DNA of 64,000 nucleotides, from positions 43,116 through 107,115 of IMG/VR virus record IMGVR_UViG_3300014720_000019; one strand, written 5' to 3'. Of the stretch, positions 2,973-54,376 are shown piece by piece. The position numbers were made by a program, and so were the translations under genes. This DNA comes from a virus. The notes beneath the pieces were generated by a model, which saw only the letters and a list, made by a program, of their open reading frames with translations, was not told the DNA's origin and searched no databases. Position 1 is the first letter of the stretch; each line of letters starts with the position of its first letter.

Positions 2973-3008
2973 TTAAGTAGATAACTAACAAAGGTATAAA
3001 AACAAGAC

Positions 3009-21194: not shown

Positions 21195-21207
21195 GAGATA
21201 AAATAAC

Positions 21208-21558: not shown

Positions 21559-21562
21559 CAAC

Positions 21563-21922
21563 ATGTTTGATATAAAAGGTACTACAGATATTGAGTTAGA
21601 TAATAGAGGAGATATAATACTTGAGACAACACCTAACTCATTATTTAGAAAGGCATTATTAACACCTAAAGGTTATATATCATATGAGTATGCTCCTGAC
21701 TCTACTATTGATAGTAACTATGGTAATAATGTTTATTACAAGATTAGAGAGAATATAAACACTGATGTAATAGCAACATTAAATGATGATGTTAGAGATG
21801 CTGCATCCTATGTTAATGTGCCAACAAAGAACATACAAGCATCAGTTGATTCTTTAGCAACTATAAACTATCTAATAACATATACAGACACATCTACACA
21901 GGAGATAACAATAAATGTCTAG
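21563..21922 (+). CDS. Baseplate wedge/sheath initiator (gp25/W-like)
   Basis: DIELDNRGDI...LLTPKG...NYG pattern, directly before baseplate J. Confidence 0.7.
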   Translation: MFDIKGTTDIELDNRGDIILETTPNSLFRKALLTPKGYISYEYAPDSTIDSNYGNNVYYKIRENINTDVIATLNDDVRDAASYVNVPTKNIQASVDSLATINYLITYTDTSTQEITINV

Positions 21923-25023: not shown

Positions 25024-25096
25024 ATATTACTACAAGAAACAAACTATCCAATAACGCAAGAAACATCAATTCAAGACAACATATTAATAGAAAGTA

Positions 25097-27218: not shown

Positions 27219-27735
27219 CTTTAATAGACTAGCAAAAGGTAGAAGTATATTTCTAAAAGGCATAGCCAACTATTTAAAGCAGTCATGTTTTATAACAATT
27301 GGTAGATATTCAGAGTGGACAGATGAGACACAACCACCACTAGTAACAGAACAAACAGCCACTGATGAAGTAATTATATACAAAAGACCTAGACTAATAA
27401 TGCTAGCAACTAAGACTAATTGTGGTGGTATATCATGTGGTAATAAGCTTATTAATGATGATAGATATTATTTAATAGATCCTACTAATCCTTCTATTGT
27501 TGATTCTAAGGCCACTCATATATACATAGAAGGAGATATTAGATATAAGGATTATCTTTGTGCATACTTTAGAACAACATCAATTGTAGTAGGCGCACAG
27601 GCTCCTAACAGTACAGCATTGTTCAAACCAGAACAGATGACTAATAAGGGCCAAGTATATATATCTACAAACCACACAAGAATAACAAGAGAATTAAATC
27701 AAAGACATCTTGTACAACAACTAATAGCATTATAA
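27205..27735 (+). CDS. Baseplate protein (T4 gp8-like N-terminus)
   Basis: ITIGRYSEWTDETQPP motif, typically found just upstream of DUF4815-type genes. Confidence 0.6.
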   Translation: MQVFNFNRLAKGRSIFLKGIANYLKQSCFITIGRYSEWTDETQPPLVTEQTATDEVIIYKRPRLIMLATKTNCGGISCGNKLINDDRYYLIDPTNPSIVDSKATHIYIEGDIRYKDYLCAYFRTTSIVVGAQAPNSTALFKPEQMTNKGQVYISTNHTRITRELNQRHLVQQLIAL

Positions 27736-27752
27736 TAATTTATAAAAAAAAC

Positions 27753-31784: not shown

Positions 31785-34119
31785 TTATAAAAGTAGTAGG
31801 TATAATCCCTACTACTTAAAGTTATTACCAGTAGCATCCAGAGAAAGACCACCACAAGCATTAGAGTTTGAAGATATACAAGATATTGCTATTAATAATA
31901 TAAGTACTTATACAAAGAATAACTTTAACACTTATCAAGTGTTATCAGGACTAAAAGTATTACTAATATCTAACAACTCTATAACTCTAAGTCCAGCTAG
32001 AATCCTATTAAATAATTATCCAGTCATAATAGAGACAGATCAAACAACAATTGATTCAACATCTTCTACATTTACTATATACTTAGCTATTAACATAACA
32101 AGACAAGACAATAAATACACCTATAACTATTCTTTCAATACTAATGATGGTTATCCACTTATCCAATGTAATAACGCCTCTTATAAATACCTTGTTAGAG
32201 ATAAGAGTAAAGATTATATAAGACAACAGTTATTTGAGATATATGGCAACTTCATTGAAAAGGGCCTTACATATAAAGACGGGTGTATAACACCTGGTAT
32301 TGCTTATATAAAGGGTAATAAGATAGTAGTTTCATATCACACTCCAATAACAACAAATCTATTAGAATATAAACTAATACTAAATGAGTTAGGACAAGTA
32401 CAGCCTGTATCATCTAACATTAGATTAGATCTTAACAATGTGATTGATCTTGGTACATACTCTAATAATAAGTGGTCCCCTAACAACTACAACAAGCTAA
32501 TAACTAATAAGGATATACAAGTACTACAACAAGGCTTATCTAATATAAGAGATTATCTATTAGAGACGGCCTTATTAAAGCCAATAGATACAACGTCTAA
32601 TCTAATAACTGATACTTTTAATAATACTAACAATGCTGATACTACTAACCCCTTATTTGATTGTGACATAGAACAAGGTAATCTAATACTTAATAAGTTT
32701 AGTAGGATTACAAAGGATATAACAATAAATAATAGAGGTACTAACACTAAGATTACTAATACTAACTCATATGTTATTGTTCAAGACTACACAGAAACAC
32801 CTCTTATATCACAACTAACATCAGACTCATTTATAACAACTAACACATCTTCTAGAGGTGTATTAAAGTTGGGGCCTTCTAAGTTAGACACATCAATATA
32901 TAAGAGAACATCTGATAAGACTATATTACTAACACAAACAGTAATATCAGCAGAAGCATATGGATTAACACCTAACTCATCAGACTTTAGATTAACAGTT
33001 GGTTCCAAACTAATATCAACTATTATTAGAACAGATGCTAATGGAAAGGCTTTATTTAACTTCTCATTACCACAAGGATGTACTGCTAATGACATAATTA
33101 CTGTGCAGAATAACACATCATCTGCTACATCATCATTGTTAGATAATACATACTCAGTTGATAATACTTATATTGGTCAAACGTTTACTATTGATAATGA
33201 CAATACAACTATTGTTGGAGGCTCTTTATATATTAGAAGAGTAGCAGCAGCTAACCCAACTATTAAAGTACTTATTACTAGATATAACAATCAAGTACAA
33301 GAGGTAATAGGTCAGACGATAATAGAGACTATAAACATTAAAACATCTGTTAATGGCACCCTATCAACCCCCTACACATTTGATCTACCAATAACCCTAT
33401 CAAAGGGGCAATATGCACTTGTAATAACATCATTAAACGGGCCAATAGATCTATTCATATCTAATAACAGTTCACTTGTTAATTCAAACTTAATAGCAGT
33501 AACAAATAACACAGCAACCCCTTATCTAAATAAAGACTTAAAGTTTGAGTTGTATAAACCAATATACACATCAACATCAGTACCAACAACAATAACAGTT
33601 AGAGATAACATTGATAAGTTTGACCACATATATTATCCAGGTAAGTTTAGAATTAATAGCATTGAATATACAAATGAAGCACCTATCAACCCCACCAACT
33701 CAATTGACATTGTATTAGACATTAATAAGTACTCTCTTGTATCACCAATACTAATTAGTACTAATAAGACAACATCTACATACATATCAAGAACCATTAG
33801 AACTAACTTTAGTTATAAGAGTGTTTACTTAGAAATGGATGCAATAATACCAGACTCAACAGAAGTAATAGTATACATATCATCCAATCAAGGATATACA
33901 TGGGACCGACTATCTAACCCCACATCATACCTAGTTGATGGCAATGATCAAACATTTAGATACATATATAACAACAATCTATCATCTCTTGTATCAATAA
34001 TTAATCAGGTAGGAGGTACAACACAAGCAACTAGAAACTATCTAACAATTAGAATTGATTTAGCTACACAATCAGACAATAAACCTATAGTAAAAGGCTA
34101 CAAAGCATATACATCATAA
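31762..34119 (+). CDS. Second, shorter DUF4815-like paralog
   Basis: RPPQALEFEDIQ, GNFIEKG, ITPGIAYIKG, GQTF and DLKFELY, collinear with the upstream gene. Confidence 0.7.
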   Translation: MSILNLSNYKSSRYNPYYLKLLPVASRERPPQALEFEDIQDIAINNISTYTKNNFNTYQVLSGLKVLLISNNSITLSPARILLNNYPVIIETDQTTIDSTSSTFTIYLAINITRQDNKYTYNYSFNTNDGYPLIQCNNASYKYLVRDKSKDYIRQQLFEIYGNFIEKGLTYKDGCITPGIAYIKGNKIVVSYHTPITTNLLEYKLILNELGQVQPVSSNIRLDLNNVIDLGTYSNNKWSPNNYNKLITNKDIQVLQQGLSNIRDYLLETALLKPIDTTSNLITDTFNNTNNADTTNPLFDCDIEQGNLILNKFSRITKDITINNRGTNTKITNTNSYVIVQDYTETPLISQLTSDSFITTNTSSRGVLKLGPSKLDTSIYKRTSDKTILLTQTVISAEAYGLTPNSSDFRLTVGSKLISTIIRTDANGKALFNFSLPQGCTANDIITVQNNTSSATSSLLDNTYSVDNTYIGQTFTIDNDNTTIVGGSLYIRRVAAANPTIKVLITRYNNQVQEVIGQTIIETINIKTSVNGTLSTPYTFDLPITLSKGQYALVITSLNGPIDLFISNNSSLVNSNLIAVTNNTATPYLNKDLKFELYKPIYTSTSVPTTITVRDNIDKFDHIYYPGKFRINSIEYTNEAPINPTNSIDIVLDINKYSLVSPILISTNKTTSTYISRTIRTNFSYKSVYLEMDAIIPDSTEVIVYISSNQGYTWDRLSNPTSYLVDGNDQTFRYIYNNNLSSLVSIINQVGGTTQATRNYLTIRIDLATQSDNKPIVKGYKAYTS

Positions 34120-37121: not shown

Positions 37122-38864
37122 ATGGGCAGACCACAAGCTGAATACACTACAAAAGACTTCTTAAATGATTTATTAGCAGATCTAACGGAGGTCACAATAA
37201 ACACGCCACAAGGTAGCAATATAGACATTGTTACCTTTGCTAATTCAATACTATTTAATGATGGTGATACTAAGTTATGGCCAACACAAGAAGCCATATT
37301 AAAGGCCATATATAATGAGCCCCTTGATCAAGTACATAAAGACATACTTAATCTATGGAGAGAACAAGGAAAGACTAATTGGTTAGAGGGCAGACATTAT
37401 ACCAACTTAATACTAGAAGCTGGAAGAGGCGCTTCTAAGTCAAGTCTAAGTTCTATTATATGTTTATATGAGTTTTATACACTCATATCATTAAAAGATC
37501 CAGGTCTTCATTATGGTCTGATGTCCTTCTCCCCAATAGCCTTATTTGCAATAGCACAAACAGCAGACCAAGTATCAGAGACAAGTTTTAAAGCTATTAA
37601 GTCCTTTCTAGAGAACTCTAACTTCTTTAAATCTCTTATCAAGAAGAAGAAAATAATAGTACTCAGTGATGAGATTAGATGTCCTGATAAATTTGTATCA
37701 CTTTTTGCTAAGCATACCAACTCTAAAGCACTAGTTGGTTATAACTTAAAGATGTTATTTATTGATGAGATGGCCCGTTTTGAAACAACAGCAGATGGTA
37801 TTAATACTGGTTTAAATATATATCAGAACACTGGTAAGGGATTAAATAGATTCAAGGGAAAAGGTAAGAAGATAGTAGTATCATCTGCTTGGTCTTTTAC
37901 TGATCCAATGGTAACACTTAAACACCAAGCACAAGGAGACCCCTACTCATTAGTAATGGAGTTAACATGTTTTGATGTTAATCCAACCATTACTAGAAGT
38001 AATCCTGATGTGATATCTGAGTATGCCTCCGATCCAAAGAGAGCTAGACTAGAGTATGAGAACATAAGATCATCCAATGAAAGCGCCTTCTTTGAAGCCT
38101 CCTTATTAGATGAGTTATGTAAGATTCAATCATCAATTGATGTTACTGAATATAACTTAGACATTGAGGATAGAGGTTATAAAGGCATAAGAATTAATAG
38201 AATATCCAACATTAATAGTGCTTGTTTTATACATGTTGACACTAGTGTTAAGAAGGATGCAACAGCATTATCAATAGCAACTATCAATAATAATGGACAA
38301 ATAGAAATAATAGGTGTAGCTTGTTGGACACCAGGCATTGATGAGTATGGTAAGTTTAGAGAGGTGTCATATATAAACATTGAAGAGATATTGATATACA
38401 TATCACAATACATGAACATCATGTCTATATCATTTGATGGTTTTAACTCAAGTTCTCTAAATCAAAACTTATATAGTAGAGGCCTAAATACTAAGATAGT
38501 ATCATTCTCAAGAGAGAAACAATTATCCTATTACAACTTACTTAGACAGTTAATACAAAGAGGTGACGTGTTATTTCCTAGAGATAGTCCTTGGACGGGT
38601 ATTATAAAAACCGATCTACCCTCACTAGTTATTAAAGACAATGGACAGATTGTTCATCCATATGGGTCTAAGGACTTACCAGACGCACTAGCTGTTTCTG
38701 TCTTTGAAGCTTATACATATGGTTCTGCTTGTAATCTTATTAATAAGATAGAGATGAACGCACCTAAACTATTGAATATAAATACTCCTAGAAAGATAAC
38801 AGTCGGAGGCTCTATAAATAGATTACAACAACATAAGCTGAGAGCTAAATATAACTATTACTAA
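37122..38864 (+). CDS. terL: Terminase large subunit
   Basis: LWPTQ (Q motif), Walker A GRGASKS, Walker B LFIDE, VSS; RNase H-like IHVDTS, SFDGFNS and SKDLPDA. Confidence 0.88.
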   Translation: MGRPQAEYTTKDFLNDLLADLTEVTINTPQGSNIDIVTFANSILFNDGDTKLWPTQEAILKAIYNEPLDQVHKDILNLWREQGKTNWLEGRHYTNLILEAGRGASKSSLSSIICLYEFYTLISLKDPGLHYGLMSFSPIALFAIAQTADQVSETSFKAIKSFLENSNFFKSLIKKKKIIVLSDEIRCPDKFVSLFAKHTNSKALVGYNLKMLFIDEMARFETTADGINTGLNIYQNTGKGLNRFKGKGKKIVVSSAWSFTDPMVTLKHQAQGDPYSLVMELTCFDVNPTITRSNPDVISEYASDPKRARLEYENIRSSNESAFFEASLLDELCKIQSSIDVTEYNLDIEDRGYKGIRINRISNINSACFIHVDTSVKKDATALSIATINNNGQIEIIGVACWTPGIDEYGKFREVSYINIEEILIYISQYMNIMSISFDGFNSSSLNQNLYSRGLNTKIVSFSREKQLSYYNLLRQLIQRGDVLFPRDSPWTGIIKTDLPSLVIKDNGQIVHPYGSKDLPDALAVSVFEAYTYGSACNLINKIEMNAPKLLNINTPRKITVGGSINRLQQHKLRAKYNYY

Positions 38865-38875
38865 CTACTAATAAC

Positions 38876-39661
38876 ATGCTTATAAGAACACCAATTATAT
38901 TCACCTTAGAACCATTTATAGAAACACAACAAGATCCTATAATACCTCAACCAACTACAATAACCCCTGACAATGAGTTAGATTTAGTAACAGTGCCCAT
39001 CTTCTTAGCACCTAGATACTATTTAAAGATAAGAGCCCCTCATAATATTAGAAATGATGCGTTTTATATACCATCTGATTACACATACTATATTCCTTGG
39101 GAAGGTATATACAAAGATCAAATAAGACTAGCATTACCACCAACAATTGGGTGGGGAGAAGGCTCTTGTTACACCGTTGAATATTGGGAATGGACACCAG
39201 TTGTAAGACCCTTGTTATATAAGAAGAGACCTACTAAACACCGTCATATAAAGACTGAACACTGGTTAATACCCCATCCATCTAATAGATATTTAGTCAA
39301 TTATCAATACATAGATAGATATAGATTTAACACGTTAAAGTTAACACTGACATCAACTGGCTCTCCTATATCATTAGCTAATAATAATGACGTATTAGTT
39401 GTGACATCTATTAATAAAACAAGTAACTATTCAATATCCCCTGTTATAGCTACTAATACAAGTCTAATACAAAGGGCTGTTAATTATGACAAGACAGCAG
39501 ACTTACTACTAACAACTGATATACCTACAGATCAAGTATTTACTATTAACTACATTAAACCAGTAGACATAAGAAACATTCTATTTAAGAACAGTTTATT
39601 CCCACAAAACATATATATTAACAACAGCACCTTCTTACAAAATCAACCAGTAACCTTTTAA
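38876..39661 (+). CDS. Hypothetical protein
   Basis: 261-aa ORF between terL and the giant gene. Confidence 0.65.
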   Translation: MLIRTPIIFTLEPFIETQQDPIIPQPTTITPDNELDLVTVPIFLAPRYYLKIRAPHNIRNDAFYIPSDYTYYIPWEGIYKDQIRLALPPTIGWGEGSCYTVEYWEWTPVVRPLLYKKRPTKHRHIKTEHWLIPHPSNRYLVNYQYIDRYRFNTLKLTLTSTGSPISLANNNDVLVVTSINKTSNYSISPVIATNTSLIQRAVNYDKTADLLLTTDIPTDQVFTINYIKPVDIRNILFKNSLFPQNIYINNSTFLQNQPVTF

Positions 39662-39670
39662 CAAACAACA

Positions 39671-42600
39671 ATGAATCTACTTGGTAAAATTGCAACAGGA
39701 TTAGGATTATATAGTGCCACCTCACTAGGATGGGGTGTACTTAATAATGACTTTAATCCATATCAACAAGGTGACTGGAATTGGCAATACAAAGGGGCCT
39801 CATACAGTGATAGAGTTGGTAATTTTACAATGTTTAGTGATAACAAAAGTAGATATAATGACTATTTAAAAGGCTATAACAAGACAGTTGGATATGATTT
39901 TAACTTAGTTGGCATTGATCCACAGCAAGTTAAAAGACAACAAATAATAGAGGACAACTTATATAAACAAGGTACTCTATCTTCTAATGAGAATCTAGCA
40001 CTTATTGGTAATCCAACTGGAGCTAATACAACATCTAGTAATAACTTAATACTAGAGAATAAAGTAGGTGGTAGATCATTATTTGTTACAAGTTTTAATG
40101 AAGAGAAAAAGAGGCCTAATTGGGTAGCTTATAACATTAGAAAGGAGAATCTTGGATCAACAGAAAGAGCAAACATATTTACGTACGACACTAATGTTGA
40201 TAGTAGATATCAGATGCTTGATAGTGGAGTAAAGGGCTTTCAAAGAGGCCACAACTTTCCATCATCTCTAGCAACTGCTAATGAGGATATAAACAAAGCA
40301 ACATTTGTTATCACTAATATGACCGCACAAGCAGGAGAGCTAAACACTGGTGCATGGAAGTACTTGGAACACTATTTAAGAGATCAAGTAAAAGATAATA
40401 ATCAACAAGTAGTTGTATTAAGTGGTAATTATGGCAGTGGTGGTATAGGAACACAAGGCTATAGAAAATATGTTGATGGAGTTGAAGTTCCAAGTATTAT
40501 GTGGAAGGTTGCAATCTTCTTAGATAGTAATGGCAAAATATCATCTAATAGTAAAAGCATTGTTACCGCATTTCCTAACCAACAAAATGTTAATAGTGAT
40601 TGGAGAAGATATCAATTAAAGAATGGTAATGATTTAAAGACTCTACTAAACACAGAAAGATTATTACCCGCCCTAGACAAAGAAACAGAAGAGGCCGTCT
40701 TAAAAAATGCTTTTAGTTTGCCAGATGATAAGAGTAAACTATTAAGCTTAGATAATCTAGTAAATAACAACTTTATGAATGAAGCTGTTATATCTACTAG
40801 AGCAAGAGAGAAAGGCATTCATAATCCTTTACTAGGTCCCTTATTTGATCCTTCAAAGTCAATGAAGGGTGTTGTCATATCAAACAAGAGAACTCACTCT
40901 GAATCATTTGAACTAGCTAGATACAATGCATCTATGATGGGTACTGGCCGTTTCACATCAGCAATAGAAGTGACTGATATGAGTACAGTGCAAGGCCTAA
41001 TGTATCTAGCAAAAGGAGATCAAATGACATGGGGGGATAAGAAGATAGCAGAGGTGTTTGATTATGCTGCTAATTCACCCTCTTTAGCATCTAGGATTAA
41101 TGAGTACTTCTTTATACCTAATGGCATGGGTAGAGTGTATAAAGAAGAGAAGGGCTTTATACCCTCATTATTTGGTGCTGTTGGTGCTCTCATTGATCAA
41201 TCATATATAACTAATAACCCAGTATTAAAGTCATATAAGAGTGACGCTGACAGTTACTACACAACAAAGAATAGTATATTTCAAGACTTACTAGAAAACT
41301 CATCAGCAGCCATACTAGCAACAACCTCATCAATTGGTGTGTACTTAGCAGTTGGTGAGCCTTTAAAGGCAATGCTGTCTAAGAGCATATTAGACACACA
41401 AAAGGCCCTAATAGATGCGTCTGACAGTCACTCCATTAAGAAGAATAGTAGTACTAGTAGTAATCCACTAGTTAGACAATTGACAGAAGCAAAACATAGA
41501 ATTGCTAATGTATTAATTGGAGGAGATAAAGACACAAATGTTGGCTTTAAGTTGCAACAGATTGAAAGAGCAATGGGGCCAAATGCAAACACGCCATACT
41601 ATGATGTAAAGAATGGCACCTTATCAGCCTACTATCTTGACAACTATGCTAGATATAGAGGAGCATCATTCTTTGAATCAACCGCACAACACTTCTTATT
41701 AGACATAGTTAATCCATACACTGTTGGCAAGGCTGAATATATAAAACTTAGAAGCGCTATTAATGATTATGTTAATGAGGTGTATAGACCTGCTGATATT
41801 AAGATCGTTGATAGAGCTAAGCCTATATCAGGTGTAGCTAGAACAATTGAATGGGCATCAGAGACAATTGATATTGACTTTAATGGTGATAAGAGAGCTA
41901 TTAAGATTGGCACTGCAATAGAAGCAATCAGAAATAAGACCGCCTTAGTTGATCCTACCAATAAAGGTGTAACTAGAGCTATGGATTCTGTTCTAATTGA
42001 TGAGATTAATGACGTTGTTAATAAGAAGTATGCAGTAGATATTACTAATGTGTCACTAGAAAGAAGCATGATACTTGCTAAGAAGACACAAGCAATATTA
42101 AACCTAATACCTATGCCCTGGGCTTGGGGCATATTTGCTGGCAGGCAAGATAAAGTTACAGCCCCTATGATTGGTAACTTGTTAGACATTGAAGGCTTTA
42201 CAAGACATATTAATGCGTCTATTAGTAATCAAGGATTCTGGGGTGCTGCTAATGAGTTTATGTACTTCAACATTGATGGCAATAACAGTAATAACGCTGC
42301 TTACAGAATAACTAATCACATAGCAACAAGTACTAGAGCAATACTAGCATTCAATGATAGAGGGGGCCAATCAAAGGCAGACTTAGAAGCAATTGAACAA
42401 GTTGCAAGTACATACTCTAATGCTGAGAAGGTAGTAGTAGAGAGACTTGATAAGGCTGAGAAAGCTAGATCATATAAGTCCTCAACAACACTAGGTAGAG
42501 AGATATTTAACACTGACGCTTTAAATCAAGATGAAGTGTTAGAATTGTTAGACCTTGAAGCTAACTATCAAAGTGAATGGAAGAAAGCATCTGGTAGTAG

Positions 42601-45600
42601 AACCAACATAAAACAAATAACACTTGATGACACCTTATACAAGTATGCTAATAAGGGCAATGCTACTAATAGTTTAGGCTTCTCATTACACACTCTAGAC
42701 AAGGGCGGTGATTATACTGGCATGAAGATTGCCAGCACTAAACTAGCAGGTGCTAAGTGGATAGTTGGAGCCTTATTCATACCACACCTATTAGGTGTTG
42801 AGTTCTTACAAAGAAGTGGTGCCTCACTACTAACAACTGCACTACAACAATTAAACTTTAACAAGACAACAACTAACACAACAATAGAACTACAATCTAC
42901 TAACTTTGTATCTGGTAGAGAGTTTGCTAAGTACTTTGGTGCTAACAATAATATAGCTGATGTTATTGGTAATGTAGAGACATTAGTAGGATTAGCAGGT
43001 ATTACAACATGGGCATGGAAGAACAGTTCATCGTTCATGCCTGAAATACATGCAAAGTTATATCAAGGTGATAATGTATTTAACTCAATAACAGAGATAG
43101 CAACAGAGTTAGATAGTAGTACTGGTAACTATAAGTTCAACGCTGTTAATGGTAGAGCAGCGATTGAAGGTGTATTAAATAATAAAGCTGGCAATATTAA
43201 CTCCTTTAGAGCCAAGCTTGCTAGTGATAAAGAAGTAGTGTTTAGTGTTGTTAGAGATGGTTCTAAGATAGTAGGACTACAAACATTAAACGCCCAAATT
43301 AAGAAGAACATGACTTCATTTGGCATAACATTAGGTCTATCATTAACAGCAATGCAGACGGCCAGATATGTTATTAGTTCTGCTATTAATGGTGAAAGGC
43401 AGTTGACAGGATCAGCCTTACTATCTACCTATGCATTAGCAGTACCAGCAGTAATAATAGGTACAACATCAATAGCTGACAATATAGCTCACACTGTTAA
43501 CTTATTAAGCGGTGGTAAGACTGGATGGAATGATTATAAGCTTACATCTGCTGTTACACGGGGCCTTTTATGGACCACACAACAAACTGCTAATATATTT
43601 GCTAAGAGTCCATTATTAGCAACAACAATAGCAGCAACAGGTCTATTAACAGCCTATATAAGTGGTGCTGCCAAATACTTAACTCCCTTTCAAGGTGACA
43701 TCAACGGACCAAGGTTAGATGAGACAAACACTACTGCTATTACTAAATTAGGCAAGTATGTAGAGCATGTTAATAGAAAGATTAATAATGCTTATAACAA
43801 TGCTGAAGCAGATAAAGGTGACATAGCAGTTAGTGACACCGTATCACCACTAGAAGTTAATGGTGCTTTATTTGCCATAGCACTTAGTAAGATAATGAAT
43901 CCAATACTATCATCACAGAAGGGTAGTACTGCATATGTTGTAGCAATACAATCACCAACACCAGTCTTTCAATACTACAGTGTTTATAAGACTATAAAGG
44001 ATAGTCAAGGCAACACATATTCAACGCTTAATCTAGGCTTACAAGGTCCACCAGCATTTGGCTTTGCACCTATCAACTTAAGTCTACCAATAGCCTTTGC
44101 AATGAATGCAAGAAGCAATGATGGAATACTAATTAGAACGGGCTACCTGGGTACAGGTTTAATGCTGAATGAAAATAACAAAGATAGCATGTCCATGCAA
44201 GACTATTTAAATTTATATGGTAATGTTGCTCTATGGAGTGGACTTGCTGTAAAAGGTGTTAGCACGTTATACAGTGTTAGAACAAAGGGTATTAATAAAC
44301 AAATAACAAAGAGTGGAACACAGGCAGCATTACCACCCCTTGTACAATCAATGAAGGGAGGTAGAGATGCCTTCTTATCAACTATTGGCACCTTACCTTT
44401 AAAGATAGCAGCACAATCATTTACCATTGCAACTGGTGATGTGAGAATGATGTCACTAAGATTAAGAGGTGGCTACTTATCAATGTTGCCAATTGGTATT
44501 AACGCACTAGTAATGGGTGCGTTTAGCAATCACTTATATGACGTGTTTAAACAAACAACACAACCCTATGTTGATAGAGAGAAGGCCAAAGATGATAAAG
44601 ATCCAATAAGAGCTGTTCTTATTGGTGGTATGGCTATTACATATGGTATTAGAGATTATTATAAAAACACATTTCAAAGGGCTAAAGAGCTAACAAGATT
44701 AGAAGGCATACTATTAAATGGCACTGACAAGATTGCATATGATATGTCTTCAATTAACATATTCTCTAGTGCTGGTCAAAACAAATATGTTAAAGGAGCT
44801 ATTAAAGTATTAAACATTGTATCTGGTGCTGCTAGTCCAGTTATATCTAAGATAGCTCCATCAATATCAGCAGTAAAACAACTATATCAATCTGCAACCA
44901 CTAATGTTAGTAGAGTGTTTAGCAGTACAAGTAGAAAAGCTAGATATGGCAAATCAGCAATTATGGGGGGCCTCTTCTACCACTTCATAACAGATCCAAA
45001 AGCAGGACTAATAAACCCAGAAGTAGCATTTGGTGATCTTAAGACACAAGAAGAAGATAAATATACATGGTCACCTAGAAGACTAACAACTGTTGCTGGT
45101 GGTGCCTTATTATTTGCAGCAACTGCACACTTATCAGGTGTAACACCAGCAACACTAAACCCCTTTCAACCACTAAGATCGGAGGAGATATTTGATAGTT
45201 ATAGAGCAAGGTTAGAGACAGTTGTTGAGTTGAGAGGAAAGAAGGGGCCACTTAACAATGTTAGATCTTGGTACAACGAGTATAGACTAACAGCACAAAG
45301 TAGAGAGGTACAGACAATATTTGATGCCTTACAAAATGGCGATCCACTGATTGAAGAGTTAAAGAAGATAGAGACTGATCCAGCCACTGGAAAGCCTGTA
45401 ACAAGAACAATTGCCTATCTAACAAGTAATCCTCTATCAAATATAAAGAATCAAGCAGCCAATAATGCTAAAGATGTGATAGACAATTTAAGCCAATTAG
45501 ATCCAACAAACACTGGACACTTAGATCTAGTTAGTGCTGCTAAAGCTGATCCTAAAGCAGTATTAGATAAGTTGTATGTAGACGATGGTATTGGTAAACC

Positions 45601-48600
45601 TAGAGTAAACATAGAAAAACACACAACAACCTTAGAGGCTATTGACTTTGCACATCCAAATGTAAGTACCAACATTAGAGTTAGTAGAATATCTAAGTTT
45701 GCAGTTGTAGGTGTTGGCTTAGGCGCTGGTTTAATGCTTAGCAATTATCTTGCTCAATCATTTGGATATAAGGACATACAAGATGCTTTTATAGGCGCTG
45801 GCAGCAATGATAAATATAGTCTAACTGAACAGATAAAGACTGGATTGATAGACTTACTAAAAATACAGACTAAACAGGATAGAGAGCACTCATATGATTT
45901 AGCAAAGGGATTAGTTGGACCCAACTTTAGAACTAGTAAGGGTGAGTTTCTATTAGCTCCAGAGAACACAGTAAAGGGATCAATTAATAAAGCAGTAAAG
46001 AATCTAAGCAACCTAGTAATAAGTAACGCTCCTAACACCTTTGTAGGCTTAGGAGCTGTTGGTATAACTGTTAGACCTGATGACAATGATGTTAGAGTTA
46101 GAGACTACTTCCAACTACAATCAGCATCACAAGACTTTAGTAGTGCCATGTATTCAATGTCAGCAGTGTTTGGTTTACAGGAGCTTGCTAAGAAGGGCTT
46201 CCTTGCTAACACTATAATAGCCGCCACAAGAGGGGTTGATGATAAAGAATTAAATCAAGCACAACTTAGAAGTATTGCTACTAATATAATAACTGCTGTT
46301 TATAGTCAACCAATAAGAAAGCCAAAGGATAGGATTAAGTTTACCACTCCTAACAAGTTGATGTTAGAAGGTATGCAAGGTAACAGACAACTATCAATGT
46401 CTGTTACTAATAGATTAAAGAACCTACAAGCAATGTCATATGGCACCACAGAACAGTTAGCATTATACACATTGACTAACAACATGTTTGTAGCTGATCC
46501 AGCAATACAAAATCAATTCTATAAAGCTCTTAGACAATTATCCTTACATGATGATCAAACAGGATTAGGAGAGCTCAATCAAAACACATTAATAGGGGGC
46601 AGACTAAATGTTAGCAGTGTAAAGATAAAGGGTAATAATGACAACCCATTCACACCATTTAAACTAACAACAGTTGAATCTAACAATGAAGATGCCTTCT
46701 TTGAAATGCAAGGCATAGCAGTACAACTAACAACTAATCAATATCTAGAACAAAAGGATCTAGGTGAGATGTTGAAGGACAACATTGCTAGATTCTATGC
46801 ATCGTCATCACTACAAGGACTAGTTAATGCTTTACCTCCTGGTCTTGGATTAGTAGCACAAATACTAGCAGCAGTTGGTGGTATAGGTGTTGTTGCTAGC
46901 ATGTTATACACTGCTGGTTATAGAGCATCAATGAATCAAGCATCTGTTGTAAATACAAGATTGTATGAACAACTAAACAAGTTTTATGACAAGGATAATT
47001 GGTTCACAGACAATAAAGTGGAAGGAATAGAAACTCCTAACACTACTGGAACACACTATCTAACAGTAAAGAGAGCAGGTGTAGTATTTGCAGTAGAAGA
47101 AGGACTTACCTCAACTCAAATACAAAAGTATCAAGATGATATTGACAAGTTACAAAGCAAACTAGCATTAAGCTTTGATCAATCTTATACTCAATTTAGT
47201 GATAGATATGGCGCTGAATATACCAATAACAAACAGAAGTTAGAAGCCTTTTATAATGACATTATTGATAGTAATAAAGTAACTGGTAGCACAACAACAG
47301 TACTAGCACAAAGAGATCAACTAATAGCTAGAAACTATGCTAAAGAGTTTCAACCAGTAATGGGTGTGGCCAATCAAACAGTAGTAACATATAACACCTC
47401 TAACAATCAAAGAATAACAGAGCATCTAATTGATCAGTTCACACAAAAGCAAGTATTAGATGCTTATTTAGAAGGCCAGCATTTACAGCACTTAGAGATT
47501 GCCAAAAATTCAAAGGGTGCTATAAAACCTATGAGTATAAGAGACTTTACTGATAAGTATTATAAAAACATAACCTATGATGACCTATTAAATTCAAAAA
47601 TAAAGGGCTTTGAAAGTAATGGCTACAACATCTTTGGTAAGGATAGATTTGCAACTAGAATGTCAATTAATCTTATAACTGAAGTGTATGCCGCCAAGTA
47701 TGATTATATTATTGATACATTCTTTAACACTGTTGATGAGAGCATTGATGATGTATTTAAAATAAGAGATGACAACATTTATTCAAAGTTTACTAGTAAC
47801 AGCATAAACGAGTTAGATCTAAACACACATACTTCTGTTAAGGCTCACGCTGCCAATAGAAGATTAGAGATGAAGATCCAACTTAGAGAGAATATAAAGA
47901 CTAGAATGGATAGTATATTTGCTCCTAAGAAGACTGGTAAGTGGGCATGGTTAGATAGTCTATTAACCTTTGTTGGAGGCAACTCAACAGTAAGAGATAA
48001 CATACAAGGTATGACCTTACAAGCTGGTGAGGCTGCAATGGATACAGTAAAGGGTATAAGAAGTGATTTAGGGGGCATGTTTAATAGAACTGGACCAGTT
48101 CCAACCTATCTAACAACAGAGGCACAAGAAGCAGTAAAACAGGAGATTATTAAAAGAACTGGACAAGGGGTTAAAGGTTCAATGCCCGTATCTAGCATAC
48201 CAGCACCCCTACAAAGTCAAGGAGCCACCTTATCCTTTGAGAATACACTATTAAGCTTTGGTAGTGGATTAATGGCCGCCTTTCAATTCATGCAATTTGC
48301 ATCAATGAATCTACTAACAATGAGAGCCGCAGCAAGTATATCCTCATCAAAGACTGGTGAAAGAGAGAAGGAGATGGCTAGAGAGGAGCTTGCTAAGGAG
48401 GGCTTTGAAAATATATTTGCTGCTATGTTTTGGGGCACAATACTAAGTGGTGAGTTGATAAAAGGATATGGTTTACCCCTAGCAGGAGGACTAGCTGCTG
48501 GTTATATTGGCTATGAGTTCTTATTTAATAAGAGAGGTATTGGCATGACAATAACTGGTGGTGCAGTTGGTGCTGGTTTATTTGCTACTGCTGTTGGTAT

Positions 48601-50212
48601 GCAGTGGTTTTCTAGAAATACTGGACCCAACAAATGGGCCTTATCACTAGGATTAGCTGGTCTAGTAATGCTTAGCAGAGGCGTATCTGATAGCATGGGA
48701 TCTGCAATAGCAGCCGTATCACCACAAGCAGGAAAGTATATAGCAGATCAATTAGAAGCTTTAAACAGTGCTGGTAGATATGGCATGAGAAAGCTACAAG
48801 ATCAGAGTCAATATATTAACTTAGTAGCTGGTGGTACATTTGCATTTGCTGGAGCATATAGCATGTTTAAAGGAGGCCCAACAGCATTAAATCTTGGACT
48901 AACAGCAGTTGGTGCTTTACTAGCAAGTGTTGGCTTAGTGCATGGTATAAACACAATAACAGAGAACAAAGATACTAGATGGGAAGGTGCAAGCAGAGCA
49001 GGCTTATCAGTTGTTGCTAACATATTAACAAGTAAGTACATACCTAAAGGTGTTGACATACTAAGCAAGACAATAGGAGCTAAGATAAGTCAAGAGATAG
49101 GAGAAAAGATAGCAATTGAATCACTAACAACCTCAGTAAGAAGTGCAGGAGGATCTGCACTTAGAAAGCTTGGTGGTGATGCATTAGTAAAGAATGTAGC
49201 AGGTAAGTTAGCAGCTACAAAAGCAGTTGGAAGCTTTGTTGGTAAAGCTGTATCTGGATTTGTTGGAGGACCTTGGGGAGCCACAATAATGATAGGTTGG
49301 AGCATATTTGAATTGTTATCAATATTAATAGCACCAGAAGCTGTGGATCAGACAACATCATGGCTAACTAATTTACCAACACAAGTGTTAGGTGGATATG
49401 GACAGCTTCTATTAACACCATCTAATCAGATATATCAAGATAAAAGATATAGAGACTTAGACACAAGAAATCCTATGTACTTTGGTACAGTAACAGACGC
49501 ATTAAAACAAGAATGGGCGGGTCAAGTAGACACGCTAACTGACTTCACAGGAAGAACCACACTAGCTAGAAACGTAGGAGCATTAGACGCACCAATGGGA
49601 GGCTATCAAGTAACTAGTCAAGGTTATGGTCCTAGATCATTAGATGCGGTTGAAGAGTTAGCTTTGATAATAAGAAGTAAGGGTTATAATCAACTAGTAA
49701 CTGGTAGACAGTTCTGGAACAGTAGAATGGATACCGCATTAAATGTGGCTCTTGTTAATCAATATATGAATATAACTAATCAAATACAAATGCAAGCTTG
49801 GGAGAATGATGTTAGAAAGACAGTAGAAAGAGAGAAGGCTAGAATAACAAAGGCACCAATATTCTCTGCAAAAGACTATAAACAGATGGCTAAAGACACA
49901 CAACCACTAGCAGAGATATTAAATAGTTTATTTGTTAAACAAAGTGCTGAATTTGCAAGTAACAACTCATTAGTAGTTAATGTAAAAGCACAAGCTGCTC
50001 CTGATAATAATCCAAGTCAAAAGATGTCCTTTGGCACTATATCTCCAACCGCTTTAAAGGCAGAGAAGGTAATACAAGATAATGGCACTCCTAAGATATC
50101 ATTTAGCAAAACAGTTGTTCCTAATATTGATCAAGTAAGAAAAGATCATAGAGATTATATTGGTCCTGAAAATACAGTTGCACAACATATTATTGCTCCA
50201 CTTAATGTATAA
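39671..50212 (+). CDS. Giant tape-measure/ejection-like membrane protein with N-terminal NucA-like sugar-nonspecific nuclease domain
   Basis: 3513 aa, Ala/Gly-rich and helical, with many hydrophobic segments. About 39990-40710 encodes GNPTGA...NWVAY...QRGHNFPS...N.ATF..TNM.AQ...LN.GAW..LE...VP...WKV...PN...DWRRY. Confidence 0.75.
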   Translation: MNLLGKIATGLGLYSATSLGWGVLNNDFNPYQQGDWNWQYKGASYSDRVGNFTMFSDNKSRYNDYLKGYNKTVGYDFNLVGIDPQQVKRQQIIEDNLYKQGTLSSNENLALIGNPTGANTTSSNNLILENKVGGRSLFVTSFNEEKKRPNWVAYNIRKENLGSTERANIFTYDTNVDSRYQMLDSGVKGFQRGHNFPSSLATANEDINKATFVITNMTAQAGELNTGAWKYLEHYLRDQVKDNNQQVVVLSGNYGSGGIGTQGYRKYVDGVEVPSIMWKVAIFLDSNGKISSNSKSIVTAFPNQQNVNSDWRRYQLKNGNDLKTLLNTERLLPALDKETEEAVLKNAFSLPDDKSKLLSLDNLVNNNFMNEAVISTRAREKGIHNPLLGPLFDPSKSMKGVVISNKRTHSESFELARYNASMMGTGRFTSAIEVTDMSTVQGLMYLAKGDQMTWGDKKIAEVFDYAANSPSLASRINEYFFIPNGMGRVYKEEKGFIPSLFGAVGALIDQSYITNNPVLKSYKSDADSYYTTKNSIFQDLLENSSAAILATTSSIGVYLAVGEPLKAMLSKSILDTQKALIDASDSHSIKKNSSTSSNPLVRQLTEAKHRIANVLIGGDKDTNVGFKLQQIERAMGPNANTPYYDVKNGTLSAYYLDNYARYRGASFFESTAQHFLLDIVNPYTVGKAEYIKLRSAINDYVNEVYRPADIKIVDRAKPISGVARTIEWASETIDIDFNGDKRAIKIGTAIEAIRNKTALVDPTNKGVTRAMDSVLIDEINDVVNKKYAVDITNVSLERSMILAKKTQAILNLIPMPWAWGIFAGRQDKVTAPMIGNLLDIEGFTRHINASISNQGFWGAANEFMYFNIDGNNSNNAAYRITNHIATSTRAILAFNDRGGQSKADLEAIEQVASTYSNAEKVVVERLDKAEKARSYKSSTTLGREIFNTDALNQDEVLELLDLEANYQSEWKKASGSRTNIKQITLDDTLYKYANKGNATNSLGFSLHTLDKGGDYTGMKIASTKLAGAKWIVGALFIPHLLGVEFLQRSGASLLTTALQQLNFNKTTTNTTIELQSTNFVSGREFAKYFGANNNIADVIGNVETLVGLAGITTWAWKNSSSFMPEIHAKLYQGDNVFNSITEIATELDSSTGNYKFNAVNGRAAIEGVLNNKAGNINSFRAKLASDKEVVFSVVRDGSKIVGLQTLNAQIKKNMTSFGITLGLSLTAMQTARYVISSAINGERQLTGSALLSTYALAVPAVIIGTTSIADNIAHTVNLLSGGKTGWNDYKLTSAVTRGLLWTTQQTANIFAKSPLLATTIAATGLLTAYISGAAKYLTPFQGDINGPRLDETNTTAITKLGKYVEHVNRKINNAYNNAEADKGDIAVSDTVSPLEVNGALFAIALSKIMNPILSSQKGSTAYVVAIQSPTPVFQYYSVYKTIKDSQGNTYSTLNLGLQGPPAFGFAPINLSLPIAFAMNARSNDGILIRTGYLGTGLMLNENNKDSMSMQDYLNLYGNVALWSGLAVKGVSTLYSVRTKGINKQITKSGTQAALPPLVQSMKGGRDAFLSTIGTLPLKIAAQSFTIATGDVRMMSLRLRGGYLSMLPIGINALVMGAFSNHLYDVFKQTTQPYVDREKAKDDKDPIRAVLIGGMAITYGIRDYYKNTFQRAKELTRLEGILLNGTDKIAYDMSSINIFSSAGQNKYVKGAIKVLNIVSGAASPVISKIAPSISAVKQLYQSATTNVSRVFSSTSRKARYGKSAIMGGLFYHFITDPKAGLINPEVAFGDLKTQEEDKYTWSPRRLTTVAGGALLFAATAHLSGVTPATLNPFQPLRSEEIFDSYRARLETVVELRGKKGPLNNVRSWYNEYRLTAQSREVQTIFDALQNGDPLIEELKKIETDPATGKPVTRTIAYLTSNPLSNIKNQAANNAKDVIDNLSQLDPTNTGHLDLVSAAKADPKAVLDKLYVDDGIGKPRVNIEKHTTTLEAIDFAHPNVSTNIRVSRISKFAVVGVGLGAGLMLSNYLAQSFGYKDIQDAFIGAGSNDKYSLTEQIKTGLIDLLKIQTKQDREHSYDLAKGLVGPNFRTSKGEFLLAPENTVKGSINKAVKNLSNLVISNAPNTFVGLGAVGITVRPDDNDVRVRDYFQLQSASQDFSSAMYSMSAVFGLQELAKKGFLANTIIAATRGVDDKELNQAQLRSIATNIITAVYSQPIRKPKDRIKFTTPNKLMLEGMQGNRQLSMSVTNRLKNLQAMSYGTTEQLALYTLTNNMFVADPAIQNQFYKALRQLSLHDDQTGLGELNQNTLIGGRLNVSSVKIKGNNDNPFTPFKLTTVESNNEDAFFEMQGIAVQLTTNQYLEQKDLGEMLKDNIARFYASSSLQGLVNALPPGLGLVAQILAAVGGIGVVASMLYTAGYRASMNQASVVNTRLYEQLNKFYDKDNWFTDNKVEGIETPNTTGTHYLTVKRAGVVFAVEEGLTSTQIQKYQDDIDKLQSKLALSFDQSYTQFSDRYGAEYTNNKQKLEAFYNDIIDSNKVTGSTTTVLAQRDQLIARNYAKEFQPVMGVANQTVVTYNTSNNQRITEHLIDQFTQKQVLDAYLEGQHLQHLEIAKNSKGAIKPMSIRDFTDKYYKNITYDDLLNSKIKGFESNGYNIFGKDRFATRMSINLITEVYAAKYDYIIDTFFNTVDESIDDVFKIRDDNIYSKFTSNSINELDLNTHTSVKAHAANRRLEMKIQLRENIKTRMDSIFAPKKTGKWAWLDSLLTFVGGNSTVRDNIQGMTLQAGEAAMDTVKGIRSDLGGMFNRTGPVPTYLTTEAQEAVKQEIIKRTGQGVKGSMPVSSIPAPLQSQGATLSFENTLLSFGSGLMAAFQFMQFASMNLLTMRAAASISSSKTGEREKEMAREELAKEGFENIFAAMFWGTILSGELIKGYGLPLAGGLAAGYIGYEFLFNKRGIGMTITGGAVGAGLFATAVGMQWFSRNTGPNKWALSLGLAGLVMLSRGVSDSMGSAIAAVSPQAGKYIADQLEALNSAGRYGMRKLQDQSQYINLVAGGTFAFAGAYSMFKGGPTALNLGLTAVGALLASVGLVHGINTITENKDTRWEGASRAGLSVVANILTSKYIPKGVDILSKTIGAKISQEIGEKIAIESLTTSVRSAGGSALRKLGGDALVKNVAGKLAATKAVGSFVGKAVSGFVGGPWGATIMIGWSIFELLSILIAPEAVDQTTSWLTNLPTQVLGGYGQLLLTPSNQIYQDKRYRDLDTRNPMYFGTVTDALKQEWAGQVDTLTDFTGRTTLARNVGALDAPMGGYQVTSQGYGPRSLDAVEELALIIRSKGYNQLVTGRQFWNSRMDTALNVALVNQYMNITNQIQMQAWENDVRKTVEREKARITKAPIFSAKDYKQMAKDTQPLAEILNSLFVKQSAEFASNNSLVVNVKAQAAPDNNPSQKMSFGTISPTALKAEKVIQDNGTPKISFSKTVVPNIDQVRKDHRDYIGPENTVAQHIIAPLNV

Positions 50213-50241: not shown

Positions 50242-51330
50242 ATGTCTAACACTACCAGACAAGATAATAGACCCGCCACATATTCAGTTAGTAAACTAAG
50301 AACATTTCACACATGTTCTATGATGTACAAATATAAGTATGTAGATAAACTTAGAGATAACAGTCTAACAAAAGCCACCTTACTTGGCTCTTGTTTACAT
50401 CAAATATTAGAAGACACATATAGACCACATATTAACATTGATAATCCACCTAGAATATTAGAAGAAGCTATTATATTAGCCTCTACCAATGAAGTACTAA
50501 GTAAGGTGTTTGTACATGATTTAACTGAGCAAATAACAACTGTATATAACTACTACAAGCAAGTAGATGATTTATATTACAGAGCAAGTGTTGATTACAC
50601 AGGCCCTAATGCAATTAGAAAAGGTGATGGTACTGTTGCACAAGCACCAGAGATGACAGCAACTTGGAAAAAAGAGATTGCTAAATTAAACATTACTAAC
50701 ACGCAGGACACTATTAACTCCTATATCAAATCAGTTGATGGTAGATGGGAGAATATAGACTTCTTTGACCTAGTACTAAATGTTATAAAGATTGCTAACA
50801 AGTTTAGCTTGGCACCTTCTATTAAGAAGATATTAGGAGTTGAATTAGAGTTCTCACCTGAGACTAACATTATAACAACGCCTAACACTGGAGATAAGGG
50901 ACCAATACTAGAAGCATATATAGATCTAATAGCAGAGATGCAAGATGGAGAAGTTGCTATTATTGATTATAAGAGTGGCTCACAAGACTACACAGCAGCA
51001 GACATTGACTTTAACAGCCAGCTACTAACATATTCATATGCGTATGAGCAATTAACCCAACAACAACCTAAGTACATTGGTATATACAATCTAAGAACTA
51101 ATAGTCTTGTATACAGTCAAATGGTGCCAGCTTTTAGAGATCAGGTAATACAACAATTAACCTCTGTTCACAAAGATATTACTAATAACAAGTTTGAGAA
51201 GAGAATACCCAACAAAGACTATGCTAACTCTTGTCCATGCCTTGATCAATTCCATAAACCCTGCCCCTTTTTACAACATTGCTATCCTGATCTATTTAAT
51301 AAGATAAACAATATAACAGTTGATTTATAA
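50242..51330 (+). CDS. PD-(D/E)XK RecB/Cas4-like exonuclease
   Basis: YSVSKL..F..C...Y; GSCLHQILE; E; YIDLI; IIDYKSG; QL..Y; C-terminal C...CPF..HC (probable Fe-S ligands). Confidence 0.85.
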   Translation: MSNTTRQDNRPATYSVSKLRTFHTCSMMYKYKYVDKLRDNSLTKATLLGSCLHQILEDTYRPHINIDNPPRILEEAIILASTNEVLSKVFVHDLTEQITTVYNYYKQVDDLYYRASVDYTGPNAIRKGDGTVAQAPEMTATWKKEIAKLNITNTQDTINSYIKSVDGRWENIDFFDLVLNVIKIANKFSLAPSIKKILGVELEFSPETNIITTPNTGDKGPILEAYIDLIAEMQDGEVAIIDYKSGSQDYTAADIDFNSQLLTYSYAYEQLTQQQPKYIGIYNLRTNSLVYSQMVPAFRDQVIQQLTSVHKDITNNKFEKRIPNKDYANSCPCLDQFHKPCPFLQHCYPDLFNKINNITVDL

Positions 51331-51361: not shown

Positions 51362-51405
51362 TATAGGCGCTATTATAGTAAACATATGCTATAATAGCGC
51401 CTATA
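51362..51405 (+). terminator. Long stem-loop (terminator or processing site)
   Basis: Perfect 17-bp arms tataggcgctattatag / ctataatagcgcctata followed by a short T run. Confidence 0.65.
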
Positions 51406-53968: not shown

Positions 53969-54376
53969 CTAATAAATATAAGTACCAAGATAGAAATTAA
54001 GAGGCGTTGTTTTATCCTTATTAGCATCCCTTAATATATTAACAGCAGTATAATAAGCTTCTGAATCATCATTAAAGAACAACTCACTATTAACCCATAT
54101 AATATTAACTTGTAGTCCCTTATCAACAGCATCTATAACACTAGTAAAAGGACTAATAATATGCTCAATTACTGTTGGATTATTGTTAGTCCATATATCA
54201 ATAATATCTCCTAAACACTCATCTAATGCATCATAGTTACGATCATAATACTCAGGAAACTTTAATAGCAGTCCAATTTCAGTTAAGAACTCTTTCTTAT
54301 TAGATATCTTATTACCATCTAATATAAGATAAACATTAGTTAGATCTGTCTTATTAACTGTGTTACTTGATGTCAT
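53969..54376 (-). CDS. Barstar-family ribonuclease inhibitor
   Basis: LDGNKI....F......L.FPEYYDRNYDALDECL.D matches the barstar FP.YYG.N.DAL.D.L signature. Confidence 0.85.
   Translation of the reverse strand: MTSSNTVNKTDLTNVYLILDGNKISNKKEFLTEIGLLLKFPEYYDRNYDALDECLGDIIDIWTNNNPTVIEHIISPFTSVIDAVDKGLQVNIIWVNSELFFNDDSEAYYTAVNILRDANKDKTTPLNFYLGTYIY

Follow-up and report, generated by a model that had tools for sequence, protein, structure and literature searches.

A cysteine-free giant protein of a Ma-LMM01-like phage carries a NucA-type nuclease module in an exchangeable N-proximal slot

The DNA studied here is a window of 64,000 nucleotides (positions 43,116 to 107,115 of IMG/VR record IMGVR_UViG_3300014720_000019), the last 64 kb of a 107-kb viral contig whose completeness is estimated at 59%. 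The source phage has a contractile tail and is related to the Microcystis phage Ma-LMM01. Among the genes that could be recognised, those of the tail encode a sheath, a baseplate wedge and a baseplate protein with M23-peptidase and lysozyme parts, DUF4815 fibre-like proteins are also present (with a phrog_877 match among the fibre-like genes), and a Mu-type portal, a protease and a capsid protein are encoded upstream of the window. Our subject is the open reading frame (ORF) at window positions 39671-50212, for which a preliminary description made from the DNA letters had proposed a giant tape-measure or ejection-like protein with a NucA-type nuclease at its N-terminus. Its coordinates and its length of 3,513 aa were exactly as given there. 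Since it runs over 3,513 codons at 33% G+C and is colinear with its homologues over the whole length, the open frame is not a product of chance. The nuclease module was confirmed, and it occupies a slot that is filled by other modules in related giant proteins. The gene is laid out as follows (window coordinates; the NS and ALT types are module types described below).

39671-50212, plus strand: giant ORF, ATG start, 3,513 aa, zero cysteine; full-length homologues are 38-69% identical
39671-39901, plus strand: clade-specific leader (aa 1-77) with a small-residue-rich start, W36-x-W38-QYKG and SDNKSRY
39980-40702, plus strand: NucA-type Endonuclease_NS (beta-beta-alpha-Me) nuclease module (aa 104-344), recognised by Pfam, PHROG, an AlphaFold2 (AF2) model and the family hidden Markov model (HMM)
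40241-40252, plus strand: catalytic motif Q191-R192-G193-H194 (DRGH in NucA), with N225, W229 and E233 at +31, +35 and +39
40811-41044, plus strand: point at which NS-type and ALT-type proteins rejoin and the shared body starts (KGIHN...ISNKRTHSE.FE.ARYNASM)
41045-41401, plus strand: BODY1 (aa 459-577), GMGRVYKEEKGFIPS...VGEPL, a block kept in every family member
45926-46480, plus strand: second family-wide block (aa 2086-2270), YFQLQSASQDFSSAMYSMS..., with invariant columns
48248-49360, plus strand: Ala/Gly-rich region with clustered membrane-like helices (aa ~2860-3230; segments at 2957, 3072 and 3203)
49376-49870, plus strand: conserved C-terminal domain (aa ~3236-3400), P3236...GYGP...W3377, with invariant columns

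The NucA-type domain claimed for the N-terminal part was recovered as a PF01223 (Endonuclease_NS) match at aa 132-317 (expect value (E) 6.5e-33; 114.7 bits against a cut-off of 23) and as a match to phrog_14168 'nuclease' (E 2e-14; PHROG hits were considered at E <= 0.01). The best solved relative was Anabaena NucA (1zm8/2o3b, E ~3e-26), with an alignment spanning the whole domain. The AF2 model of aa 1-420, made at an alignment depth of 12 homologues, folded aa 103-363 with a predicted local distance difference test (pLDDT) score of 63-92; the score was below 50 for aa 1-102 and 364-420. Compared by Foldseek with NucA 2o3b/1zm8, the model gave E 3e-18, a target template modelling score of 0.85-0.86 and a root mean square deviation of 2.4 Å. 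The module is ~28-31% identical to NucA and 39% identical to its nearest cellular relatives, which are bacterial lipoprotein-type nucleases.

The catalytic His, Asn and Glu had been described as kept, and indeed H194, N225 and E233 correspond to NucA H124, N155 and E163 at the same spacing (+31, +39), with W229 in the place of NucA W159. Residues G193, H194, N225, W229 and E233 were invariant in 12 homologues (41-80% identity). The earlier reading of DRGH as QRGH was likewise correct (Q191), so that the Asp of the DRGH motif that marks the NucA family is missing; among homologues the first position of the motif is D, Q or H, and its Arg is replaced by Met in proteins P0005 and P0018. The catalytic residues of the domain are intact. 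The NucA/Serratia nuclease family (PF01223; 1zm8, 2o3b) thus offers the same fold and the same catalytic His, Asn and Glu, but NucA is a free secreted enzyme with DRGH, whereas the module studied here lies inside a 3,513-aa protein without a signal peptide and reads QRGH.

Ahead of the module, the hydrophobic N-terminal segment of the preliminary description is present, though only weakly hydrophobic (best 19-residue Kyte-Doolittle (KD) mean 0.91, with KD >= 1.5 taken as the level of a membrane helix throughout) and specific to the clade. In the leader W36, W38, Q39, Y40, K41, G42, K59, S60, R61 and Y62 are invariant, and its pLDDT in the AF2 model was below 50. Distant family members lack the leader and have polar N-termini without a signal peptide.

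The fusion of nuclease and body is genuine, since the NucA module and the body are kept together in at least 13 NS-type proteins on separate contigs. An assembly chimera was ruled out, as the fusion recurs on many independent contigs with leader and body colinear. A search with the whole length returned 18 relatives. The ones bearing PF01223, which are encoded on separate contigs of up to 257 kb, align colinearly over the entire length, starting at residue 1 (38-69% identity). A profile-free, exhaustive search with aa 380-1579 added 33 more distant clusters of giant proteins (2,760-5,089 aa). The family comprises about 50 giant proteins with a common body of 2,300-3,400 aa, including gp120 of Ma-LMM01 (2,898 aa), and a homologue of 4,151 aa is encoded by the Microcoleus phage My-WqHQDG. 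The giant protein matched phrog_29513, to which gp120 belongs, at E 1.6e-31, and body homology to gp120 appeared as colinear BLAST blocks (E 1e-25 and 1e-11). The block at aa 2086-2270 matched gp120 aa 1775-1963 (BLAST E 1e-11) and My-WqHQDG (E 4e-15), and the C-terminal domain showed a weak colinear match to My-WqHQDG aa 3927-4027. In the databases gp120, MaMV-DH01 ORF143 and the My-WqHQDG giant are annotated as hypothetical proteins only, and in the literature searched we found no description of gp120, its relatives or such a virion nuclease.

The homologous giants were compared for swapping of enzyme domains at this position, and the answer was emphatic: four module types occupy one slot, namely Endonuclease_NS (NS), SNase, PLD-like, or a module with the pattern HSK...HxN that we call ALT. 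Local HMMs built from the family's own modules and run on 54 proteins identified 13 Endonuclease_NS, 15 SNase, 12 PLD-like and 11 ALT modules; Pfam found SNase and PLDc_2 in 11 each of 29 distant members. The SNase and PLD modules exceed the Pfam cut-offs and contain their motifs (PLDc_2 lies at aa 1043-1176 in the My-WqHQDG giant). Although the N-terminal region varies from 200 to 2,000 aa, every module ends 66-194 aa upstream of BODY1.

The ALT type was recognised in five close relatives (P0013-P0017) that lack PF01223. They have the first ~77 residues in common with the nuclease forms, continue into an unrelated module of ~390 aa and then rejoin the NS forms at 'KGIHN...ARYNASM'. The same module was detected further away in the family, Ma-LMM01 gp120 included (aa 243-435, E 7e-19). 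Four motifs are invariant in it, HSK, D..ETS, H[Y/R]N and T.R.T.S..E..iRisS, and Pfam does not recognise it. We considered ALT as a divergent PLD, which was not supported: besides the missing Pfam hit, hhalign against the family's PLD modules gave a probability of 0.5%, and BLAST to the PLD region of My-WqHQDG reached only E 0.07. For the near-clade ALT-type proteins, viral and metagenome scans revealed no encoding DNA, and there are no shorter homologues.

Module changes were counted on a tree of the body alone (47 proteins, 2,372 columns). At least 15 module changes are required on this tree, compared with a mean of 25 for shuffled labels and a minimum of 3, so the labels are still more clustered than in the shuffles. 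Sisters on short branches differ in their modules: P0009 (NS) and P0013 (ALT), P0040 (SNase) and My-WqHQDG (PLD), and P0024 and P0025-27. Identities along the proteins are mosaic. P0005 (NS) and P0013 (ALT) have leaders that are 94% identical, unrelated modules and bodies that are 76% identical, while P0013 and P0017, both ALT, share 93% identity in the module and 70% in the leader. The phage of locus L013 (SNase) and My-WqHQDG (PLD) are syntenic, with 82% identity in the terminase large subunit (TerL), and their giants are 71% identical from L013 aa 257 on; the replaced part is N-terminal only, 256 aa with SNase versus ~1,214 aa with PLD. The mosaic pattern shows that cassettes are exchanged, and such exchanges are both frequent and recent.

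In an otherwise syntenic stretch ~1.5 kb past the giant gene, an unmatched 98-aa ORF is present in the SNase-type phage (L013:21166-22399), and at the same spot the PLD-type phage has ORFs of 73 and 146 aa and an annotated 286-nt tRNA-Arg (L003:21939-23157). These small ORFs are the only nearby genes that differ with the module and may be candidate immunity genes.

The contents of the slot bear on what the modules do. They might only bind nucleic acid, or hold the leading end of the genome and guide it along the channel, with little or no catalysis left. This would remove the problem of self-damage; all four module types bind nucleic-acid backbones without sequence preference, the N-terminus of a tape-measure-like protein would adjoin the DNA end, and the DRGH Asp is Gln or His in many members, with Arg changed to Met in two. 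However, H194, N225 and E233 do not vary among the 12 proteins, whose identity is 41-80%, a sign of selection for catalysis; the PLD and SNase modules keep their motifs and stay above the Pfam cut-offs; and where three unrelated catalytic folds have been recruited convergently, the simpler explanation is that the activity common to them was needed. We therefore consider a purely DNA-holding role quite improbable. Three unrelated, self-refolding nuclease folds of secreted type in one slot argue that the shared activity is what is selected.

Downstream of the slot the protein had been described as Ala/Gly-rich with many hydrophobic stretches. The enrichment holds for aa ~2750-3250 only (25-26%) and not elsewhere (9-20%). 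The hydrophobic stretches were confirmed, with seven distinct segments reaching KD >= 1.5 between aa 1025 and 3224, and all family members have a cluster of membrane-like helices 300-500 residues before the C-terminus.

A second family-wide property is the near-absence of cysteine. We counted 7 cysteines in the 173,382 residues of 52 family proteins, and none in this giant, in gp120 or in the My-WqHQDG protein. The other ORFs of the contig contain 0.72% cysteine, from which ~25 would be expected in the giant protein (Poisson P ~1e-11). The contig encodes just one further giant, an ORF of 3,923 aa upstream of the window (L009:1-11772, minus strand, contig 20851-32622), which likewise contains no cysteine. 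A DFDGD motif, the signature also seen in the P23-45 virion RNA polymerase, occurs once in it, at aa 2812, and it has two hydrophobic segments only; it gave no Pfam or PDB match and showed no similarity to the nuclease giant or its modules. Two smaller ORFs also lack cysteine, a 418-aa Mu-I-like protease/scaffold candidate (contig 40877-42133, L010:8255-9511) and a 356-aa ORF at window 25097-26167. The near-absence of cysteine from both giants of one genome may provide a simple marker for proteins that travel through the tail.

The genes around the giant gene form a compact run:

37122-38864, plus strand: TerL, matching phrog_9 and phrog_2 (terminase large subunit); 87% identical to the L004 TerL and 41% to Ma-LMM01 gp118
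38876-39661, plus strand: ORF X, 261 aa, directly upstream of the giant gene; candidate dedicated chaperone
50242-51330, plus strand: PD-(D/E)XK (RecB/Cas4-like) exonuclease, PF12705 at E 2e-22; last gene before the terminator
51362-51405, plus strand: strong intrinsic-terminator-like hairpin with a 19-bp stem, closing the run from TerL through ORF X and the giant gene to PD-(D/E)XK

Gaps within this run are 9-29 nt, and no comparable plus-strand terminator was found between 37122 and 51330. From the portal to window position 52650 the major genes all lie on the plus strand, and the giant gene ends a same-strand morphogenesis block of ~60 kb. TerL, a small ORF and the giant gene follow one another in the same way in Ma-LMM01 (gp118-gp120), in My-WqHQDG and in loci L004-L007 and L013. 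ORF X has no Pfam or PHROG match; ORFs at the same position are 60% (L004), 55% (L007) and 26% (a 253-aa ORF of My-WqHQDG) identical to it, and in Ma-LMM01 the slot is filled by gp119, which has no BLAST match to ORF X. The PD-(D/E)XK gene is syntenic in L004 (70% identity), and L013 and L003 have a homologue (73%) downstream of the giant gene on the opposite strand. ORF X, TerL and PD-(D/E)XK are conserved regardless of module type; ORF X is not a module-specific immunity gene, because it is found beside both NS- and PLD-type giants. The giant gene is the fastest-evolving gene locally, with 46% identity to L004 versus 52-87% for its neighbours. The TerL itself varies in length, with 580 aa here versus 728 aa in L004 (L004:6975-9161) and 920 aa in L007 (L007:6414-9176); the extra residues are all N-terminal, ahead of a core of 77-87% identity, and could be an added domain or an intein-like insert.

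The membrane-like helices might also be read as a membrane anchor, with the giant a non-virion protein that is made in the infected cell, sits in its cytoplasmic membrane and serves superinfection exclusion or takeover, its nuclease attacking host nucleic acid or the incoming DNA of plasmids and superinfecting phages. The several helices, nuclease types that normally work outside the cytoplasm and module swapping, which suits conflict between phages, all fit such a role. The expression of Ma-LMM01 would also allow it, as the terminase belongs to a middle class of 162 genes and the late class has five genes only (PMC5780444). On the other hand, a body of 3,000 aa would be an extreme cost for a membrane anchor, the giants have neither a signal peptide nor a regular topology, near-total cysteine avoidance over 173,000 residues would be unexpected in an ordinary inner-membrane protein, and the gene is embedded in a morphogenesis block. 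We regard this explanation as unlikely.

NS, SNase and PLD/Nuc enzymes belong to families that are classically extracellular or periplasmic. A fibre or whisker on the particle surface, with a nuclease to remove extracellular DNA from the mucilage or biofilm surrounding the host, would draw on just such extracellular-nuclease families, and slime or mats are the habitat of the known hosts of the cultured relatives (Microcystis, Microcoleus). Fibres, though, are not characterised by membrane-like helices or by hydrophobic stretches rich in Ala and Gly; Pfam and PHROGs revealed no fibre, collagen or beta-helix signatures in the giant, and the phage already has separate fibre-like genes (the DUF4815 protein, phrog_877), which makes a fibre highly improbable.

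Cysteine avoidance, the membrane-like segments, the operon position and the analogy to gp96 of the Thermus phage P23-45 lead us to infer delivery by the virion. We propose, with a probability of roughly 0.55, that the giant is a virion-internal, ejected, tape-measure-like delivery protein with an exchangeable nuclease cargo. A few copies would be built into the particle and, upon tail contraction, extruded largely unfolded through the tube of the contractile tail. The conserved body of ~3,000 aa would be the delivery part, and its C-terminal hydrophobic, Ala/Gly-rich helices would insert in the host membrane to form or anchor a DNA conduit, as tape-measure and ejection proteins do. The N-proximal cargo, here a NucA-type sugar-non-specific nuclease, would then refold and cut nucleic acid in the periplasm or cytoplasm ahead of any phage gene expression; its likeliest target would be nucleic acid, foreign or of the host, that endangers the incoming genome or competes with it. 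Unfolded passage through a narrow tube would suit such cargo, because its families are normally secreted and self-refolding.

Enzyme-loaded giant virion proteins are known in few cases: the N4/crAss-type virion RNA polymerases, P1 DarB and P23-45 gp96. P1 DarB and the N4 virion RNA polymerase are very large enzymes packed in the head and delivered with the DNA, and P1 is a myovirus; we know of no membrane-like helices in either protein, and homology of the giant to them was not detected. By analogy, its closest counterpart would be gp96 (5,002 aa), in which a virion RNA polymerase at the N-terminal end is fused to a tape measure that has transmembrane domains (Chaban et al. 2024, PMC10770324). 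It is present at full length in virions, and its enzyme is proposed to act at the cell end of the tape-measure channel (PMC10770324). Like gp96, the giant joins an N-terminal enzyme (aa 104-344) and downstream hydrophobic segments (aa 1025-3224) in one protein, but the two show no homology (phrog_23188 is not among the PHROG hits of the giant) and the likeness is one of analogy only. The cargo here is a nuclease and not an RNA polymerase, the phage is a myovirus and not a siphovirus as P23-45, the gene follows the terminase, a metallopeptidase domain is absent, and four module types are exchanged within the family. In contrast, gp120 and the My-WqHQDG giant are true homologues of the body, cysteine-free and in the same gene order, but with ALT (gp120) and PLD-like (My-WqHQDG) modules instead of Endonuclease_NS. 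Phage polyvalent proteins are another class believed to enter the cell together with the phage DNA (Iyer et al. 2017, PMC5512222). They differ from the giant in having an array of domains, whereas a single enzymatic domain (one Pfam domain) is present here; their DNases are ParB-like only and are not displaced by other DNases (PMC5512222).

We treat the tape-measure label of the preliminary description as tentative: the gene follows the terminase, outside the tail module, and the protein has no tape-measure match in Pfam or PHROGs. Its only Pfam hit was PF01223, and its only PHROG hits were phrog_29513 (function not assigned) and the nuclease family. Tape measures are diverse, so the missing profile match does not exclude such a role. 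A model of body residues 380-1579 had a low mean pLDDT (54.5), with 57% helix, 9% strand, several helices of 30-50 residues and small beta subdomains. Two ORFs of the tail module had to be considered in this connection:

window 10922-13468: 848-aa ORF where a tape-measure gene is usually found, behind the genes for sheath and tube and two small ORFs; N/D/T/I-rich
window 17883-21194: 1103-aa baseplate-region ORF, T/S/P-rich

Both look non-helical by composition (judged by eye) and match no tape-measure family, and no protein of the tail module looks like a convincing tape measure; Ma-LMM01 has ORFs of 623 and 1177 aa at these positions. This favours the giant being the tail tape measure itself, that is, the length ruler, displaced in the genome and with an N-terminal enzyme cargo as in P23-45 gp96, whose precedent applies to this explanation as well. 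Hydrophobic C-terminal segments and fast evolution are also typical of tape measures. Further, a 135-aa ORF (L010:136-962, plus strand, contig 32758-33584) contains an in-phase lambda-type slippery heptamer G GGA AAG at contig 33096-33102 with an open -1 frame of 161 codons, and has a PHROG match of unassigned function. By its sequence it looks like a G/GT-type tail chaperone pair, which by implication places a tape measure in the genome. This G/GT-like ORF, however, immediately precedes the Mu-type portal gene, is oriented head-to-head with the 3,923-aa ORF and is far from the tube genes; it adjoins the other giant, and not the one that follows the terminase; by tblastn, no G/GT-like ORF was found beside the giant gene in relatives.

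Length also speaks against a ruler. The L013 and My-WqHQDG giants differ by ~940 residues while the other structural genes are 67-82% identical, so that the total length of the giant would not be the ruler; the difference lies entirely at the cargo end. Nor does the length match the reported tails: the Ma-LMM01 tail of ~200 nm needs ~1,400 helical residues, compared with 2,898 in gp120, and for MaMV-DH01 a tail of 260 nm is given (PMC9927357). Together with the beta subdomains in the body model, the absence of family matches and a contig 59% complete, so that a conventional tape measure could be encoded elsewhere, this leaves the ruler a plausible but tentative, narrower version of the delivery protein proposed above. 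Wall-cutting activity, often carried by tape measures, is supplied here by a separate gene of the baseplate module (window 15178-16320), whose product has a lysozyme-like N-terminal part and an M23 metallopeptidase.

Several points weigh against the proposed delivery of a nuclease by the virion. Neither Pfam nor PHROGs links the body to a family of tape measures or ejection proteins, and structural matches are also lacking: Foldseek against viral models gave none at E <= 0.001 and a protein-atlas search none that was usable; a VIA-wide structure search returned generic helical hairpins only (Z <= 6.9), and a PDB sequence search with P0013 returned no match. The gene lies after TerL, outside the tail module and ~26 kb downstream of the tube gene. 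Presence of family members in the virion is deduced indirectly, and gp120 and MaMV-DH01 ORF143 carry only hypothetical annotation. With Gln in place of the DRGH Asp, nuclease activity may be reduced. A non-specific nuclease beside the phage's own DNA needs a protection mechanism, and none was identified: the contig (59% complete) has no match to the NuiA-type inhibitor (PF07924), a negative made uninformative by the control genomes, which gave no match either. As an inhibitor candidate we also considered a 135-aa ORF at window 53969-54376 (minus strand), but its barstar similarity is weak (E 0.26-0.42 against the PDB) and insufficient for any inhibitor call. Finally, the transcript levels of the host are reported to change little during infection by Ma-LMM01 (PMC5780444); this speaks against a wholesale breakdown of host DNA, at least with ALT-type cargo.

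The last point also weakens the earlier suggestion that the nuclease serves host shut-off, since Ma-LMM01, with gp120 of the same family, reportedly leaves host transcripts largely as they were (PMC5780444). It speaks for a narrower role of the nuclease, directed at the DNA of competitors or at defence RNAs, or acting locally at the entry site.

That close relatives so often exchange the nuclease type suggests an arms race, in which hosts or rival phages would oppose it with inhibitors or immunity factors. In this respect the family resembles the polymorphic toxins (Rhs, CdiA, MuF-toxins), in which a conserved delivery part is combined with an enzymatic warhead replaced by recombination among close relatives; their variable module, however, is C-terminal and not N-proximal as here, and no adjacent immunity gene was identified beside the giant. 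A more far-reaching reading, which we consider doubtful, would be a polymorphic injected-nuclease system with at least four unrelated folds, driven by such an arms race, for instance with NuiA-like inhibitors of the host, and forming a phage counterpart of the bacterial polymorphic toxins, in which the giant would probably double as a tail inner protein and matching self-protection genes would exist.

In the literature searched we met with no report of phages that bear a non-specific nuclease in this way, or of a lineage that repeatedly exchanges its type between close relatives. The family includes cultured phages of bloom-forming cyanobacteria (Ma-LMM01 and the MaMV strains). If the protein is ejected, these phages would act on the nucleic acid of the host cell ahead of any phage gene expression.

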